The position numbers and the translations under genes were made by a program. The notes below the pieces were generated by a model that did no database searches, was not told where the DNA came from, and saw only the letters and a list, made by a program, of their open reading frames with translations. Of a DNA stretch of 64,000 nucleotides, positions 27,908 through 48,014 are shown piece after piece (the first letter of the stretch is position 1; every line of letters starts with the position of its first letter). The DNA lies in contig JAUVXW010000004.1 of the NCBI GenBank assembly GCA_030603385.1, positions 93,088 through 157,087 of the forward strand. Reading direction: 5' to 3'. Source of the stretch: Promethearchaeota archaeon (GTDB taxonomy: Archaea; Asgardarchaeota; Lokiarchaeia; Sigyniarchaeales; SOKP01).

Positions 27908-28186
27908 ATGGCAGGTTCTGAATATATTAGTTGGAGTCCTATTAGGCGCCTTATGAAACTATAATAATCAACTCGATTATTTCTTCAAAATAATGGCGCT
28001 TTAATCGTTGCTCGTGATGCAGTTAACGAGCTCGTTGAATGGATGGGTAGCTCCGCTGAGAAACTTACTAAAAGTGCTTTAACTTTAACTAAACACTCTA
28101 AAAGAAAGAAAATCACGAGCTTCCTTTAGAATTCCTAAAAAAACGTGAAAAATGACATTCTTTTAGCGATTAAATACTTCAAATAA
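27908..28186 (+). CDS. Archaeal histone, 72 aa, three exons (27908-27959, 27990-28119, 28150-28186)
   Basis: Spliced product MAGSEYISWSPIRRLMKHNGALIVARDAVNELVEWMGSSAEKLTKSALTLTKHSKRKKITRNDILLAIKYFK has histone-fold motifs (PIRRLMK; KHSKRKKITRND). GTGGAGG upstream and T-run downstream. Missed by the ORF track because both inserts contain stops. Confidence 0.92.
27960..27989 (+). other. BHB-type mRNA intron 1 of the histone gene (30 nt)
   Basis: Central helix UGAA/UUCA, bulges AC|U and AA|A, exon helix AGGCGCC..UUA/UAA..GGCGCUU. Removal gives AAA CAT AAT. Confidence 0.88.
28120..28149 (+). other. BHB-type mRNA intron 2 of the histone gene (30 nt)
   Basis: Central helix CACG/CGUG, bulges AG|C and AA|A, intron stem UUUAG/CUAAA. 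Removal gives ACG AGA AAT GAC. Confidence 0.88.
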
Positions 28187-40993: not shown

Positions 40994-42991
40994 CTATAAT
41001 CTTCTAGTTATAATTGAGTAAATTTGTTCACCAGTAAACCCTTTAATATCAATCGCTGAGCATCTGCAATTGCCCGAACAAGCGCCACATCCTTTACATA
41101 ATGCTTCATTAATTTTAGCTATAAGACCAAATCTTTTATCATCAACAAGTTCAATTGCTCCATATGCACAATTTTCTACACACATTCCACAGCCAATACA
41201 ACGCTCTGGACGAATTACTGCAAAAAATGGTTCAATTTCAACTTCACCTTTAGCCATCAAACCAGCTGCACTTGAAGCTGCTCCCTTAGCTTGAGCAACA
41301 GCATCAGGAATATCTTTTGGGCCTTGAGCAACACCCGCGATGAAGATTCCCTCTGTTAAAGTATCTACAGGTCTTAATTTTGGATGTGCTTCTAAAAAAA
41401 ATCCATCAGCTGATCTTTGAATTCTTAGTAGAGAAGTTATTACATCTGCATCTGCTCGAGGCTCTAAACCACAAGATAAAACAAACAAATCTACTGTTAA
41501 TTCAATTGGTTGTTGAAGTAATGTATCCTCAGCTCTTATTATAATATTGTGATTATCATCTTCGATTACTTCTGCTATTCTACCTCTCACAAAATTGATT
41601 CCGTAGTTTCGCCCTGCAGATTCGTAAAATTCCTCATAACCCTTTCCAAAAGCTCGAATATCCATATAAAAAATATAAATATCTGCATCTGGATGCTTTT
41701 CCTTATATTGCCTTGCTTGCTTAGTTGCATACATACAGCAGACTCTTGAACAATATTGATTTCCTCCTTCTCTGAAATTTCTACTTCCCACACATTGAAG
41801 AAAGGCAATGCTATGGGGTTCTTTAAGATCCGAAGGTCTAACAGGCTTTCCTATAACTGGTCCAAAAGAACTTAATAAACGTTCCATTTGAAATCCAGTA
41901 ATAACATTAGGATACCTTCCATATCCATATTGTTTAAGTTCAGTTGGATCATATAAATCCCACCCGGTTGCTACTATTATTGTGCCTACTTTTACTTTTA
42001 GATATTCAGGTTCATCATCAAATTTAATTGCTTCAGGCTCACAGACATCGATTCGCTCACAAATTCCACATTTGATGCAATTATCCATATCTATTGTAAA
42101 TTGTCCCGGGACCGCTTGGGGAAATGGGACATAAATTGCTTTTCTTGTAGCTAAACCTAATTCAAACTCATTTCCAACAATAATAGGACAAGAATCAATA
42201 CAGATTCCACAAGCAGTACATTTCACTTGATCTACATAATGAGGTTTTTTCAGAATGGTTACATCAAAATTTCCTATATATCCAGTTACTTCTACTACCT
42301 CAGAATAAGTTAAAAGTTCAATATTTTTTTCACGTGATACTTCAGACATTTTAGGAGTAAGGATACAGCTTGAACAGTCCATAGTTGGGAACGTTTTATC
42401 AAGTTGAGCCATATGGCCACCAATAGTTGGTGTTTTTTCAACTAAATACACTTTATAACCCTCTGTAGCAAGATCTAAAGCAGCATTCATCCCTGTAATT
42501 CCTCCTCCGATGATTAAACAAGAGGGTTCTACACTTACCGTTTGTACTTCTAATGGTATTAATTCTCTTGATTTTGCTACAGCCATTCTTATAAGATCTT
42601 TAGCAGTTTCATAAGCTCCTTCTGGCTCTTTCATATGAACCCATGTTGAGTGCTCTCTAATATTCGCCATTTCAAAAAGGAACTGATTTAATCCTGCTTC
42701 TTTACAGGCAATCCTAAAAGTTGGTTCATGCATTCTTGGAGAACATGCTGCAACAATCACTCTATTAACTAATCCCGCCTCAATGTCTTCTTTAATCATT
42801 TTCTGACCTACGTCAGAACAAAAAAACTTATATTCTCTTGCGATTTCGACATTTGGAAGGGTCTTCGCATATTCTACTAAATCTGGAACTGAAACTACAC
42901 CACCAATATTAATTCCGCAGTGACATACATATACTCCTATTCTAGATCTTTCATTCCCTGTGATTTCTATTTCTTTTTTAATTTCTGTCAA
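40994..42991 (-). CDS. hdrA: Heterodisulfide reductase subunit A (Cys form)
   Basis: CHCGINI, NIRE, GGGITG, KTFPTMDC, CSRVCC and ferredoxin motifs. Confidence 0.95.
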   Translation of the reverse strand: MTEIKKEIEITGNERSRIGVYVCHCGINIGGVVSVPDLVEYAKTLPNVEIAREYKFFCSDVGQKMIKEDIEAGLVNRVIVAACSPRMHEPTFRIACKEAGLNQFLFEMANIREHSTWVHMKEPEGAYETAKDLIRMAVAKSRELIPLEVQTVSVEPSCLIIGGGITGMNAALDLATEGYKVYLVEKTPTIGGHMAQLDKTFPTMDCSSCILTPKMSEVSREKNIELLTYSEVVEVTGYIGNFDVTILKKPHYVDQVKCTACGICIDSCPIIVGNEFELGLATRKAIYVPFPQAVPGQFTIDMDNCIKCGICERIDVCEPEAIKFDDEPEYLKVKVGTIIVATGWDLYDPTELKQYGYGRYPNVITGFQMERLLSSFGPVIGKPVRPSDLKEPHSIAFLQCVGSRNFREGGNQYCSRVCCMYATKQARQYKEKHPDADIYIFYMDIRAFGKGYEEFYESAGRNYGINFVRGRIAEVIEDDNHNIIIRAEDTLLQQPIELTVDLFVLSCGLEPRADADVITSLLRIQRSADGFFLEAHPKLRPVDTLTEGIFIAGVAQGPKDIPDAVAQAKGAASSAAGLMAKGEVEIEPFFAVIRPERCIGCGMCVENCAYGAIELVDDKRFGLIAKINEALCKGCGACSGNCRCSAIDIKGFTGEQIYSIITRRL

Positions 42992-43004: not shown

Positions 43005-43990
43005 CTATATTAATTGTTCTTTAACCATACTTAAGAATGGATCAATAGGAATGAATGGAGAAACACCAGATAATTCATGATTTTTAATTAAACCCAATGA
43101 GTTAGGATCCATCCCAAATGCAACCCCTAAGAGCTGAGTTATATATATTACAGGAATTTTGAATGGTTCACCAATTATATTTCCATAAATATTATTTACC
43201 TCCACTTGACCTAAATCGAGCTGGAGATGACAGAAGGGGCAACAATTAATTATAATATCAACTCCTACATCTCTCATATTAACTAGTTTTTCTCTAGTAA
43301 AATCAGCTGCGACTTCCTTAACAGCTGTTCTAACAGCTCCACCCGCACCGCAACACATATATTTATCTTTATAATCAATGCTTTTAGCACCAGTAATTTC
43401 GACAATTTCATCAAGAAATCTAGGTGCTTCATATTCACCTTGCCAAGGTCGTTTATCACTTGGTTTTACAATATGGCATCCATAATGAACACCTACTTTT
43501 AAATCTGAAAATTTTAACTTTATATGATCTTTTAAATAATCTAGTCCCATATCAAGATATAGGGCTTGAACAATGTGTTTTGGTTCTAGATTCCCTTTAT
43601 ACTCACGATTAATTTTAGCAAGATGTTTATTAACTTCTTTTTTCAATTCGAACTCATGTTCAAGTTCATACCATGCATCTTTTAGAGTTCCATAACAACC
43701 ATTGCAACCAGTAATGGGATTTACTCCTATTTCTTCTGCAATAGAAATATTTCTAGCAGCAATTACGAGCCAAGTTGGAATATGAAATGCTCTAAAAACA
43801 CCTGGTGCAGGACAGCATGAGGCTCCTGGTAAATCTAAAAGCTCAGCACCAAGGTGATCAAAAACACTTCTAATTGATACTTCAATCATAGGATATCTAT
43901 TGGGGATTTTGTCTAGAATCGATTTGATATCTAGTTTACACAGCCCAAAAAGAATCCATATCTCCACTTATAATCATTAGTTATACTCAT
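43005..43990 (-). CDS. hdrB: Heterodisulfide reductase subunit B, two exons (43990-43936, 43906-43005)
   Basis: Spliced N-terminus MSITNDYKWRYGFFLGCVIPNRYPMIE restores the FLGC..PNRYP motif, followed by CCPAPG, CNGC, HYGCH, CCGAGG and CPFC. Confidence 0.92.
43907..43935 (-). other. Relaxed BHB (BHL-type) mRNA intron in hdrB (29 nt)
   Basis: Intron stem CUAGA/UCUAG, central GUGU/ACAA, bulges AA|A and AA|U, exon helix UUGGG/CCCAA. Removal gives TGT GTA ATC CCC. Confidence 0.85.
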
Positions 43991-44470
43991 TTTAATTAAT
44001 TATTCTAGATTAATTACCTTAGACTTTAAAATTAATAGAATATTAAATAATTTCTCTTTATTATTTATACTTATTATGTGGCAAGATTCTAAATTTAAAG
44101 AATAATTCTTTTTTATAATCTTATTTTCTAATTGAAATTTAATAGAGAAAGATTTTTCTTTTAATTAAAATCGAAATTTTTTAAAGTATTTATATAAATT
44201 TTTGTTGGTTAATTCCAAAAAAATAGATTAATATCTCATAAAAAGTCAATTTTAATGGATTGCGTTTAGGAATCTTATCCAAAATCTGAAAATTTGTAAA
44301 ATCCTCTTTTCCACATGGCTCCAACAATTCTTTTTATTATTAATTCAGATTGTTGAGAAATTTCCTTTTTTTTTAATGTGCTAATAATATCGAATATCAT
44401 ATAGGAAGTGCGTTCATCTAACCAAATGGATTCTAAAATTTCTATAAAACAAGAACTCTTATAATCGAAC

Positions 44471-46795
44471 TTAGTTTATTATTTTTTCTATTTCTTTTTC
44501 TAAATCAGATCCATTTTTGCTTAAGAGTGGTACATTTCTTTCATGCTTCATATACTTCACAAAATCCAATATATAAGAAATTAAGATCTCGGGTTTAAAT
44601 TTCCAAGCTCGATTTTTATTAAAAACCATACAATCTATATTTATTTTGACTGTATCATCGATCTTATTTAATATGTATTCTAACATCAGACCGTAGACGC
44701 ATATTTGAGGAAGAGATTTTAATATTTCTGTTTTATCTGGTTTATAATCAGCAATTACTATACAATTATTATTAATTAAAAGTAAATCAATATGACCAGT
44801 ATAAACTACATTCCATTTCTCTATTACCTTCCATGCAGGAATTTCCATAGCAAGAGCATTATCTTCATTCAAAATAATATGTTTTAATATTGGATTATGG
44901 TGAGGAGTGCCACCACTTCCTTTAAATAAGTTAAAATTTTCTCTAACTTTTTGGCATAAATAAAAGTCTTTATTATATATAGAGATTTGATTCTGCTTTT
45001 TTAATTCTTGAAATAAATATTTCTCAATTAATTCAGTTTTCAATTGATTGTTATTTTCACCTTTTAAATAAAAATCAGAAGCCCTAGGGTTTGATTTCAA
45101 ATTAAAAAAGGCTTCAGGTATCTCTCCATTTAAAATTTTATTGAAAAATTGTAATAGAAGATTTTTGAGAATTGGATTATTAATCTTATTAACTTTTTCT
45201 TCATTTAAATGAAAATCGTAATTTATATTTTGATGAATAAACTGTTTATGCCTTAAATATCTTAATTTATCCAATAAGATTAAAAAATGACCTTGAGTTG
45301 AAGGTTTTAAATGGTTTGTAATGAAGATTTTAAATTTACTATAAGTTTGCGGTGCGATAAAATTAATTTTGTTTTTTACTACTTCAATTAGATCATATAA
45401 CCGACCACCACGATAACCAATTTCGTGGGCAAATTCTTGAGGTTCCAAATTAGTATTTTTAAATAACTTAAGAAGGAAAAGGGTTTCAATATGAAAAAAA
45501 TCTGTTAATTTTTTATACATTAACTCAATAAAATCATCTTTAGAGTAATTTTGTCCTTCATATCGACCTAATAAATCTCTTAAAAAGGGATATAACCGAT
45601 TAGATTTTTCAGTGATATATCTATAATTCCTATCCTCACCAAAAATCCTTTCAAAGTATTCTGCGGTTGCTGAAAATGGGATATCTTTTTTTACTCTTAC
45701 CTGATAAAATAATAAAGATAAGGCAAAGATTTGAGGGAAATAATAATTAATTTCATTACTTTCAGCAATATAAATTATTTCAAATCCAGAATTTATTATT
45801 GAATCGTATAAATTCCTGGAATTGTTAATAAAATATTCATCAATGACATTTAATATAGATTCTATTACAAATTTTTCTTTTAGGTTTTCTTTAACCCAAA
45901 ATTTTAACTTTTTAATATAAATCTTTAAATAATTTTCTATTTTTTGTTTGTACTCCTTTTCATTTAATGTAAAATACCCTGTCATCAACTGGCTATAAAG
46001 TTCGCTTAATTTGCTGTAATTAACTCTCAAATTTTTGCTTTTACTCAAAAATCTAACAAACTCTTTTTGATTTAATTCGATATCTTTATGATAGTTGATA
46101 TGAATTAGACAAAGGCTACTAGCCATAATTTTAGGATTTTTTATTTTCAAAGAATTATATAATGTTCGAAATCTATTTTCTGTATTTCGAGAATCAATAA
46201 ATAAATTAAAAAGTCTAAATGTTTGTTCTATATCATCCTTATTAAATATATAATTATGACAGTTACTTAGAGAATTTAAGAATTTAAAGTTTAGAGATAT
46301 GTAATTTTTAACTATTTTTTTGTATTCCCCCTCTGAGAGTAATTGGGGGCGTATTAATTCATATACAAATTCATACTCAGGAATTCTCTTTAAAATTCGA
46401 TATAAATTTGGTAATATTTCTCTAAGAATGCTCACTTTTTGGTTTAATTTAATAGCAAACGAATTTTGAGATATATTCTGAGAGCTTTTACGTAATGAAC
46501 AATAAAGTAAGCTCATAGCAAAATATTTAGGCAGAATCACTCTAAATTTTGAGAGAAATATTTCAAATGGACTGATGCTTCCTTTATTTTCTAAATATGT
46601 TAGAATATCATAGTAAATCTTTTTGGACAATTTAAGGTAATCCGTGGATAAATCAAGTTTTTGAATATATTGAGCTATTTTATTAAAGACATTAAATTCC
46701 CAATTTTCCTGCTCCTTAATCATATTAAAAGAAGATATTGTTTCAAGATTAGGTTCATTTTCATTTCTAAAATCTATCACATTATCTGAATTCAT
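44471..46795 (-). CDS. Large protein with TFIIB/cyclin-like helical repeats and a C-terminal PD-(D/E)XK nuclease
   Basis: C-terminal EIP..TGHIDLL..IADYKP..Q..YG. Three repeats resembling P..xAxSLxY. Confidence 0.7.
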   Translation of the reverse strand: MNSDNVIDFRNENEPNLETISSFNMIKEQENWEFNVFNKIAQYIQKLDLSTDYLKLSKKIYYDILTYLENKGSISPFEIFLSKFRVILPKYFAMSLLYCSLRKSSQNISQNSFAIKLNQKVSILREILPNLYRILKRIPEYEFVYELIRPQLLSEGEYKKIVKNYISLNFKFLNSLSNCHNYIFNKDDIEQTFRLFNLFIDSRNTENRFRTLYNSLKIKNPKIMASSLCLIHINYHKDIELNQKEFVRFLSKSKNLRVNYSKLSELYSQLMTGYFTLNEKEYKQKIENYLKIYIKKLKFWVKENLKEKFVIESILNVIDEYFINNSRNLYDSIINSGFEIIYIAESNEINYYFPQIFALSLLFYQVRVKKDIPFSATAEYFERIFGEDRNYRYITEKSNRLYPFLRDLLGRYEGQNYSKDDFIELMYKKLTDFFHIETLFLLKLFKNTNLEPQEFAHEIGYRGGRLYDLIEVVKNKINFIAPQTYSKFKIFITNHLKPSTQGHFLILLDKLRYLRHKQFIHQNINYDFHLNEEKVNKINNPILKNLLLQFFNKILNGEIPEAFFNLKSNPRASDFYLKGENNNQLKTELIEKYLFQELKKQNQISIYNKDFYLCQKVRENFNLFKGSGGTPHHNPILKHIILNEDNALAMEIPAWKVIEKWNVVYTGHIDLLLINNNCIVIADYKPDKTEILKSLPQICVYGLMLEYILNKIDDTVKINIDCMVFNKNRAWKFKPEILISYILDFVKYMKHERNVPLLSKNGSDLEKEIEKIIN

Positions 46796-46989
46796 TTGAT
46801 TCTTTTGGTTTGATTTTAAAATAGGATTAAATATTTTAAAATTACTTTGAGTGTGAAGGTTTTCAGTATAATTGTTGGATTTTTTTCCAGTATAAAAAGT
46901 GAATTGACTGATGTCTATTTCATCATTCTCTTGTCTCTTCGTTTTAAAAAAAGCAAACAGCTCTTTTTTATTGTCTTTATAATAAAAAA

Positions 46990-47538
46990 ATGAAACAATA
47001 TAAAAAATACAAAAAACCTTCTGATAAAGTAAAAGGAGCCCGAATTTTATTAAATTTAATTAAGTCCGGAATTATAAATGTTAGAACTATCGGTTGTCTT
47101 GCCCAATGGTACAAGATTGAAAGGATTGGGCAAGATATTTTGAACAAACTTCCGACTTCTTTAGGTAAACTCAATAAAAGTACCAATAGATTCGAGTTTA
47201 ATAGCCAAAGACTACCCATAAATAGAGCTAAGGTGTATGTTTGGTATTGCCTAGTTCTTGCAATGATGCCTGTACCTCTTGGTAGCTATACGGCATTTGT
47301 ATTAGATACATTTCCAGGAGATGAGCCTGATAAAGGAAAAACACCTGGCTTGGGTTTTATGAAATTGATCTCTACAAATACGATTTTTGAAGAGTACTGG
47401 AGAAAGTTTATGAAAACTCCTTATTTTTTTTCTTCTGCCTTTGCTCGCTCTTTTTTTAATTTGGCTGCGTTATCTAATAATTTTCTGAATCCAACAGCCT
47501 TCATCAAATTCTGGCACTCCTCTACAGCTTCTGGATAA
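46990..47538 (+). CDS. Hypothetical protein, 3' end overlapping hdrC convergently
   Basis: 182-aa ORF with ATG start, no recognised motif. Confidence 0.45.
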   Translation: MKQYKKYKKPSDKVKGARILLNLIKSGIINVRTIGCLAQWYKIERIGQDILNKLPTSLGKLNKSTNRFEFNSQRLPINRAKVYVWYCLVLAMMPVPLGSYTAFVLDTFPGDEPDKGKTPGLGFMKLISTNTIFEEYWRKFMKTPYFFSSAFARSFFNLAALSNNFLNPTAFIKFWHSSTASG

Positions 47539-48014
47539 GAATGGACTGTTGGGGGTAAAGGTGGTAATCCATAGGATTCTCTTAAATCTCTCCATTTTTT
47601 ATTTGCTTCTCCATTTGCAGGAACGCCATGTCCAGTCGCATAAAAGATATTATTAGCTAACCCGAAATGGCTGTCTAAAATATACCCTTCTTCAACTGCG
47701 ATATTTCTAAGTTTAATAATCATATCAGTGACAGGAATATCTCTCGGACAGCGCTCATAGCAATAATAACAAGTCGAACATAACCAAATATCAATATCCT
47801 GTAGAACAGATTCGTCACCTGTTAAAGCACGGCGGAGAACAGAACGAGTCCTGTATGCCGTACGACGCCCACTTGGGCAACTCCCAGTACAAGTACCACA
47901 ATTTATACATGCTCTTAATTTCTCTAAACCAGCATCAACAAATTTTTGCGCAATTCTTGAACTTGTGGACTTGTAAACTTTTCTTTTAATATACTTTTCT
48001 ACATTATCGCTCAT
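47421..48014 (-). CDS. hdrC: Heterodisulfide reductase subunit C
   Basis: CINCGTCTGSCP, IWLCSTCYYCYERCPR and TGHGVP motifs. Confidence 0.93.
   Translation of the reverse strand: MSDNVEKYIKRKVYKSTSSRIAQKFVDAGLEKLRACINCGTCTGSCPSGRRTAYRTRSVLRRALTGDESVLQDIDIWLCSTCYYCYERCPRDIPVTDMIIKLRNIAVEEGYILDSHFGLANNIFYATGHGVPANGEANKKWRDLRESYGLPPLPPTVHSYPEAVEECQNLMKAVGFRKLLDNAAKLKKERAKAEEKK

Follow-up and report, generated by a model that had tools for sequence, protein, structure and literature searches.

How can a gene whose reading frame breaks off beside its first Fe-S cysteine still give rise to its protein? This question is posed by hdrB in a window of 64,000 nt from a Promethearchaeota archaeon (GenBank assembly GCA_030603385.1, contig JAUVXW010000004.1, positions 93,088 to 157,087), an AT-rich stretch of contig C36 of the 3.9-Mb, 94% complete assembly referred to here as G000. 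On the minus strand an ATG at 43990 opens MSITNDYKWRYGFFLGCVN and the frame then ends at a TAG within a 29-nt insert at 43907-43935, as an earlier note on this DNA had read it, and the remainder of HdrB (IPNRYPMIEVS..., 300 codons) lies in a different frame from 43907/43906 to the stop at 43005. That note took the insert for a frameshifting intron next to the first Fe-S cysteine. The fold of the insert, its presence in related genomes and the enzyme genes of the host all support this, and we consider it likely that 43907-43935 is a relaxed bulge-helix-bulge (BHB)-type intron, of the HBh' or bulge-helix-loop (BHL) form, that is spliced from the hdrB mRNA.

The gene belongs to the HdrB family by its two stretches of match to PF02754 (CCG) and by its neighbours hdrA and hdrC (Table 1). 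Exon 1 encodes MSITNDYKWRYGFFLGCV and the first base of an Ile codon and bears the first Cys of the N-terminal CCG domain, and its substitutions among the genes that carry the insert are mostly synonymous in the exon-1 frame. In about 20 same-genus orthologues of 85-97% protein identity the corresponding region reads ...YGFFLGCV↓IPNRYP... free of any insert, with the hdrC stop and a GGAGG just upstream. Excision of the 29 nt gives the same ...GCV↓IPNRYP in G000, exactly as the earlier note had predicted, and cuts placed as GUGUAA↓A...AA↓U yield TGT GTA ATC CCC and hence the GCVIP of the intron-less orthologues. The 29-mer itself (ACTAGATATCAAATCGATTCTAGACAAAA) has a single occurrence in the window and in the genome. 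The distance given in the earlier note between the hdrB stop and the start of hdrA also held, and hdrA is probably on the same transcript as hdrB.

In BHB motifs the cut falls after the second bulge base and the strands run in the order h-H-B-h', which was also checked by tRNA 37/38 logic. The canonical order is an outer helix, the central helix H, a 3-nt bulge and the other outer helix (bioRxiv 10.64898/2026.10.13.758758). Unconstrained minimum-energy folds of 64-66 nt were obtained for each of six carriers of the insert, and compensatory change in the insert is judged here from these six sequences only. In G000 exon 1 terminates in GUGU-AA↓ and the first bulge is AA↓A (43937 and 43936, then the cut, then 43935). 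The intron is laid out as the bulge base 43935, a 22-nt hairpin h' (43913-43934), the strand H(b) ACAA (43909-43912) and AA (43907-43908), and exon 2 begins with U. The central helix GUGU/ACAA has three Watson-Crick pairs and a G.A, and h' consists of CUAGA/UCUAG, then one bulged U and then AUC/GAU (5+3 bp). The 3' cut AA↓U (43907↓43906) falls within a 2x4 or 3x5 internal loop closed by the outer helix. The earlier note had drawn a CUAGA/UCUAG stem directly under the AAA bulge, a central helix of three Watson-Crick pairs plus G-A and a 3' loop closed by UUGGG/CCCAA as a relaxed BHL motif, and all three features are recovered in the unconstrained fold.

All six carriers fold alike into the GUGU helix, the AAA bulge and the hairpin h', and a helix of the GGG/CCC type closes the loop of the 3' site in six out of six folds. 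At the outer helix GGG...CCC is present in all carriers and GGA...CCT in most intron-less orthologues. For the relaxed form we required one canonical half, made up of H, a 3-nt bulge and a flanking helix (2-3 bp or more), and a second cut placed within a loop that a helix closes, and the carriers show GUGU/ACAN, AAA and a directly adjacent CUAGA/UCUAG helix of 5-6 bp. When the insert was shuffled 200,000 times, 0.5% of the shuffles gave, in a register that restores the frame, 3 or more H pairs together with 4 or more contiguous h' pairs. The two other frame-equivalent cut registers have poor scores for H and h', namely (2,1) and (3,0) as compared with (3,5), and a register that places the 5'-strand bulge between h and H was discarded as wrong since the canonical order is h-H-B-h'.

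The insert stands at the same codon in six hdrB genes, which come from five genomes of two genera and, independently, from a JGI metagenome contig (L055). Within the genus of G000, a DNA search across 54 congeners found it in G104 (the genome closest to G000 being G019), and when 135 family genomes were scanned with a degenerate pattern it turned up in G045, G070 and G056, which belong to a second genus; the reversed control pattern had no match in these 135 genomes. The insert of the JGI contig (29 nt) shows no difference from that of G000, that of G104 (29 nt) differs by one base, those of G045 and G070 (both 29 nt) differ by two bases and that of G056 (31 nt) has the same ends and a different interior. 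An assembly artefact is ruled out by the other four genomes and by the JGI contig, which shares the layout of G000 with scattered synonymous differences. The sole addition made by an order-wide scan for the intron pattern (L094, at G057:C159:4461-4498) was rejected as a chance match in non-coding, non-hdrB DNA with no hairpin.

Substitutions between the carriers are compensatory or structure-neutral, as expected of a structured RNA. H(b) is ACAA in G000, the JGI contig and G104 (G.A), ACAU in G045 and G070 (G.U) and ACAC in G056 (G-C), where the central helix is a perfect 4 bp. In h' G056 differs from G000 by a G-C pair that has become A-U, an A-U pair that has become U-A and one added pair, so that two double changes and one added pair set it apart from the others; these pairs were counted by register with a script, the MAFFT alignment having misaligned the G056 hairpin. 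The bulged base within h' varies between U, A and C among the carriers and in G104 the only change creates an additional G-C pair at the loop. The idea of a structured insert thereby gains comparative backing that the earlier note did not have. Across five carriers the intron is 90-100% identical, compared with only 76-78% for exon 2.

Removal of the insert is also what the carriers need in order to make HdrB. The 31-nt insert of G056 contains a stop in both the exon-1 frame and the downstream frame, so that no unspliced open reading frame (ORF) links the Cys to IPNRYP. In G070 hdrC lies directly upstream and its stop overlaps the exon-1 ATG (TAATG) behind GAGGAGGAG, a strong ribosome-binding site that serves the exon-1 frame; because this ATG is coupled to hdrC, translation in G070 starts in the exon-1 frame and would end at the TAG after 20 codons. 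Only removal of the insert yields HdrB in every carrier. The CCG match scores 101.9 bits with the N-terminus of the program-made ORF, 101.8 bits with exon 2 alone and 114.8 bits in an intact orthologue, whose true N-terminus therefore adds 13 bits as against 0.1 bit for the extension from GTG 43967. The ORF-track N-terminus (MEIWILFGLCK...) adds practically nothing to this score and is impossible in G056, and the earlier note was right to call it an artefact.

Judged by its gene sequences the host appears to have both an endonuclease suited to relaxed motifs and an RNA ligase. G000 contains two PF01974 (EndA) genes. The first, at C44:18795-19019, encodes a 198-aa alpha subunit with the Tyr/His/Lys catalytic set, its best structural match being the alpha subunit of the Aeropyrum pernix heterotetramer, and in the alignment a K-P-R of this subunit matches K44 and R46 in the Crenarchaea-specific loop (CSL), a loop that confers cleavage of non-canonical and BHL motifs (PMC3241643). 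The second paralogue (200 aa, at C9:36254-36502) lacks the His, as does the beta subunit. The earlier note had reasoned that a relaxed motif implies a broad-specificity EndA and had asked for its subunit type, and the genome holds alpha and beta paralogues with the K-P-R loop. RtcB is present as well (C39:18568-19875, 558 bits).

On this basis exon GUGU in the folded transcript would pair with intron ACAA, the AAA bulge would lie between this helix and the 5+3-bp intron hairpin, and the GGG/CCC exon-exon helix would close the loop holding the 3' site. A heteromeric (alpha-beta) EndA would then cut after GUGUAA and after ...ACAAAA and RtcB would join the exons to give ...GFFLGCV-IPNRYP..., a normal HdrB N-terminus with its first Fe-S cysteine. 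The spliced hdrB would read the junction GGGCTGTGTAATCCCCAATAG behind the G000-type exon 1 GATTATAAGTGGAGA and encode the peptide YGFFLGCVIPNR. We infer the cutting and joining of the hdrB RNA from what was observed here, namely the insert and the way it folds, its conservation and compensatory changes, the need for its removal and the enzyme genes.

A number of observations weigh against splicing. The insert departs from the strict hBHBh' form of a BHB, in that the 5' bulge AA↓A is canonical and the 3' site lies in an internal loop. Its 3' half is not a canonical 3-nt bulge (a 2x4 loop in G000 and 1x3 in G104 and G056; outside G000 the site lies in a 1x3 loop or a 2-nt bulge), and the central helix of G000 includes the G.A mismatch. 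With no more than 55 nt between the start codon and the intron, splicing must outrun coupled translation. In five of the six carriers the frame read without splicing from GTG 43967 is uninterrupted, and it retains a Cys. Public runs (RNA runs X16 and X17, also X9 and X1) gave contigs only of intron-less G019-like relatives and none over 43920-44150; the loose ends of these contigs read ...GGTTTTTTTTTAGGATGTGTAATTCCTA..., a G019-type exon 1, the intron-less relatives having CGATATGGTTTTTTTTTAGGATGTGTAATTCC where the G000-type exon 1 has its own sequence, and one sequencing-run search found no run with at least half of the query words, so that the runs speak neither for nor against splicing. The carriers are few and related. 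Recombination between alleles means that dN/dS (discussed below) is not a clean measure of selection after insertion, and it weakens both the dN/dS and the conservation arguments.

Three other explanations deserve to be weighed against splicing. HdrB might be translated with no splicing at all from GTG 43967, as MEIWILFGLC-KLDIKSILDK-IPNRYP... with ten extra residues and a Cys retained, which would cover a peptide MEIWILFGLCKLDIK, or in truncated form, starting at the ATG that is codon 7 of exon 2. In G000, the JGI contig, G104, G045 and G070 the downstream frame stays open from a GTG or ATG, and the variable base of the hairpin bulge occupies a third codon position in it. However, a TAA interrupts the downstream frame inside the G056 insert, the GTG/ATG is a by-product of conserved Lys-Trp codons with no ribosome-binding site of its own, and in G070 the coupled ATG and its GAGGAGGAG serve the other frame. 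The gain of 0.1 bit in the CCG match falls far short of the 13 bits of the true N-terminus, changes in the downstream frame amount to G>R, L>V, K>E and K>I, and the Cys spacing would become C-x40-CC, whereas the spacing in the CCG signature is x31-39. We regard translation without splicing as very improbable. Ribosomal recoding, either by a -1 frameshift at GUA-AAC to give GCV-KLDIKSILDK-IPNRYP or by a bypass of the hairpin like that of T4 gene 60, strikes us as more improbable still. In gene 60 a stop stands at the take-off site with a hairpin close behind, and here too the stop directly follows the putative take-off site and the hairpin begins 3 nt later. Yet the site is U GUA AAC and no slippery heptamer of the X XXY YYZ type lies 5-9 nt before the structure, and no GUA or AAC/AAU landing site, and no matching pair of take-off and landing codons, keeps the frame in all carriers; an Asn tRNA landing on AAU would meet UCC UAA in G056, and the frame offset itself varies, with 29 nt in five carriers and 31 nt in G056.

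The insert might instead be a disabling one, a small palindromic element or a scar of recombination acquired with the 5' module or island described below, and the hdrB of the carriers would then be dead or dying. It is an imperfect palindrome, it sits exactly where homology to G019 breaks and a 3.5-kb island stands in place of 56 nt, and most of the genomes searched (54 congeners, 135 family genomes) do not have it. Against this, all six carriers, from two genera and two HdrB clades, keep an intact exon 2 of 300-303 codons. The dN/dS of exon 2 is 0.059 between G000 and the JGI contig (dS 0.37) and 0.13 between G000 and G104 (0.06-0.13 overall), which marks strong purifying selection on it between carriers. 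Six copies that have stayed intact on diverged backgrounds speak against a dead gene. In addition, G070 bears the insert but lacks the island, conservation of the insert exceeds that of synonymous sites and its changes are compensatory, and G000 holds no replacement copy of hdrB, with no HdrB paralogue closer than about 41% identity in the genome. A disabling insertion therefore seems quite unlikely to us.

Table 1. Features of the window in and around hdrB, with the histone gene (positions in the window; exon and intron limits are those of the proposed splicing)
Feature	Position	Strand	Remarks
Histone gene	27908-28186	+	two 30-nt near-canonical BHB inserts, 27960-27989 and 28120-28149
hdrA	40994-42991	-	TTG 42991, 13 nt past the hdrB stop; GGTGA in the spacer
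hdrB exon 2	43005-43906	-	300 codons; rest of CCG domain 1 and whole of CCG domain 2
Outer exon-exon helix, span	43900-43948	-	UUGGG 43944-43948 pairs with CCCAA 43900-43904 in the minimum-energy fold
Putative intron, 29 nt, ACUAGAUAUCAAAUCGAUUCUAGACAAAA	43907-43935	-	third base of bulge 1, hairpin, H(b), AA
hdrB exon 1	43936-43990	-	begins at ATG 43990, 5' cut follows GUGUAA; homology to the N-terminal part of orthologues that lack the intron
Central helix strand H(a), GUGU	43938-43941	-	in exon 1; pairs with ACAA 43909-43912
hdrC-hdrB island (3.5 kb)	43991-47416	-	missing in the closest relatives; same layout in JGI contig L055
AT-rich leader	43991-44100	-	upstream of exon 1
774-aa ORF	44471-46795	-	AT-rich, within the island
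182-aa ORF	46990-47538	+	crosses the island junction 47416/47417
hdrC	47421-48014	-	upstream of hdrB beyond the island; directly upstream of hdrB in most relatives

The insert adjoins the edge of a recombined 5' module and of a 3.5-kb island, a circumstance that the earlier note had missed. DNA identity between G000 and G019 is 96% from hdrA up to 43908, at the 3' edge of the insert, and resumes at 94% at 47417, within the ribosome-binding site after hdrC, so that G000 has 3,508 nt in place of 56 nt. This block contains the insert, a diverged exon 1, the AT-rich leader, the 774-aa ORF and an antisense ORF. A repeated or mobile DNA element was rejected, as G000 has only one copy of the insert and one of the entire island. 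Integration of an element that duplicates an att site was rejected as well, since nothing resembling hdrB is present at the far junction, TAAGGAG↓TTTTCAT (47416/47417).

Within hdrB, exon 1 of G000 shares 91% identity with its counterpart in G045, from the other genus, and 72% with the one in G019, and for exon 2 this is reversed, with 77% to G045 and 95-96% to G019. Over the first 45 nt of exon 2 G000 and G019 differ at 8 positions as compared with about 2 per 45 nt further on, and the JGI contig and G104 differ at only 2 of the 45. The leader upstream of exon 1 (TATAAATAATAAA...TTAATTT.AA..CTAAG.TAA) is common to G000, the JGI contig, G045 and G056; it carries no Shine-Dalgarno sequence and probably serves hdrB-hdrA as a promoter of their own in carriers that lack an adjacent hdrC. 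Because the exon identities are reversed and the leader is shared, the intron appears to travel with a short 5' module by recombination. In the HdrB tree G000 and the JGI contig are nested among intron-less congeners, G104 being basal to them; the sister group consists of G045 and G070, and G056 belongs to a distant HdrB clade.

No Pfam family was matched by the 774-aa or the 182-aa ORF of the island. Full-length homologues of the former (29-36% identity) occur in six family genomes, none of them beside hdrB, and its last 240 or so residues (HIDLLL...IADYKPDK) correspond to a separate gene of about 245 aa that almost all family genomes possess; this C-terminal region looks like PD-(D/E)xK. The 182-aa ORF extends 118 nt antisense into the 3' end of hdrC and is conserved in the JGI contig.

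The histone gene of the same window has inserts built in the manner of the hdrB insert, with one base, a hairpin, four H bases and AA. Their central helices are perfect 4-bp ones (UGAA/UUCA and CACG/CGUG). Both inserts are shared with G019 and G136 and neither is found in some ten congeners, and at the second site G007 has a different 30-nt insert with a central helix of UACG/CGUA as compared with CACG/CGUG, changed on both sides. In intron 2 of the G019 histone gene (L059) CGUG has become AGUG, leaving three pairs and a G.A, so that it is weakened in the same way as the hdrB intron of G000. In the 3.9 Mb ARAGORN detected only 18 tRNA genes, of which 7 have introns of 8-53 nt in the anticodon loop; non-canonical introns presumably hide most tRNA genes of G000. 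These counts agree with reports of heavily interrupted tRNA genes in Asgard archaea. We tentatively suggest, as a possibility on which we remain doubtful, that the hdrB intron is mobile between hdrB alleles of different genera and clades together with a flanking exon tract, through homing-like conversion or reverse splicing, and belongs to a set of mRNA introns of 29-31 nt, spliced by EndA, that occur genome-wide in Promethearchaeota.

In the papers searched, splicing of archaeal coding mRNA is confirmed for cbf5 only, other cases being merely predicted (PMC2738675), and a literature search combining Asgard, BHB and mRNA returned work on tRNA only. Like the cbf5 intron of Desulfurococcales and Sulfolobales (Watanabe 2002; Yokobori 2009; PMC2738675), that of hdrB is a short intron inside an archaeal coding sequence, in a host with a hetero-oligomeric broad-specificity EndA, with patchy gain and loss among relatives, and is easily taken for a frameshift. 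It differs in belonging to Promethearchaeota (Asgard) and not to Crenarchaeota, in interrupting a gene of an hdrCBA cluster and in its stereotyped length of 29-31 nt and its position 55 nt from the start codon; moreover, splicing of cbf5 has been shown experimentally whereas that of hdrB we infer. The non-canonical (HBh'/BHL) introns of archaeal tRNAs (Marck and Grosjean 2003) likewise have one canonical and one loop-like half, and cleavage at the loop half of a BHL by the Aeropyrum EndA needs a CSL lysine (PMC3241643), a residue that the EndA alpha of G000 has. In contrast to these introns the hdrB substrate would be an mRNA with no tRNA body, and the exon half of its motif consists of codons (Cys-Val, Gly, Pro). 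The interrupted tRNA genes of Asgard archaea come from the same lineage and the same presumed machinery, two EndA paralogues being present in 44 of 60 Asgard genomes and intron gains being repeated and patchy (bioRxiv 10.64898/2026.10.13.758758; PMC11291895). These papers deal with tRNA genes only, and the words mRNA and cbf5 are absent from the first of them.

Gene callers give hdrB a false N-terminus that lacks the context of the true first Fe-S cysteine, and the annotation of metabolism genes in Asgard archaea is affected as a result. The hdrB intron offers a small substrate, with 64 nt, two enzyme genes and one ligase gene in a single genome, and its patchy distribution together with the conservation of exon 1 and intron across genera opens a route to the study of how introns spread. 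If hdrB is spliced, a relaxed 3' site would be tolerated in mRNA, and the occurrence of such splicing in core genes of energy metabolism and of chromatin would make intron-bearing, protein-spliced mRNAs routine in the lineage closest to eukaryotes. Should the more tentative view of a mobile set also be true, protein-catalysed mRNA splicing with gain and loss of introns would be ordinary in the closest archaeal relatives of eukaryotes.
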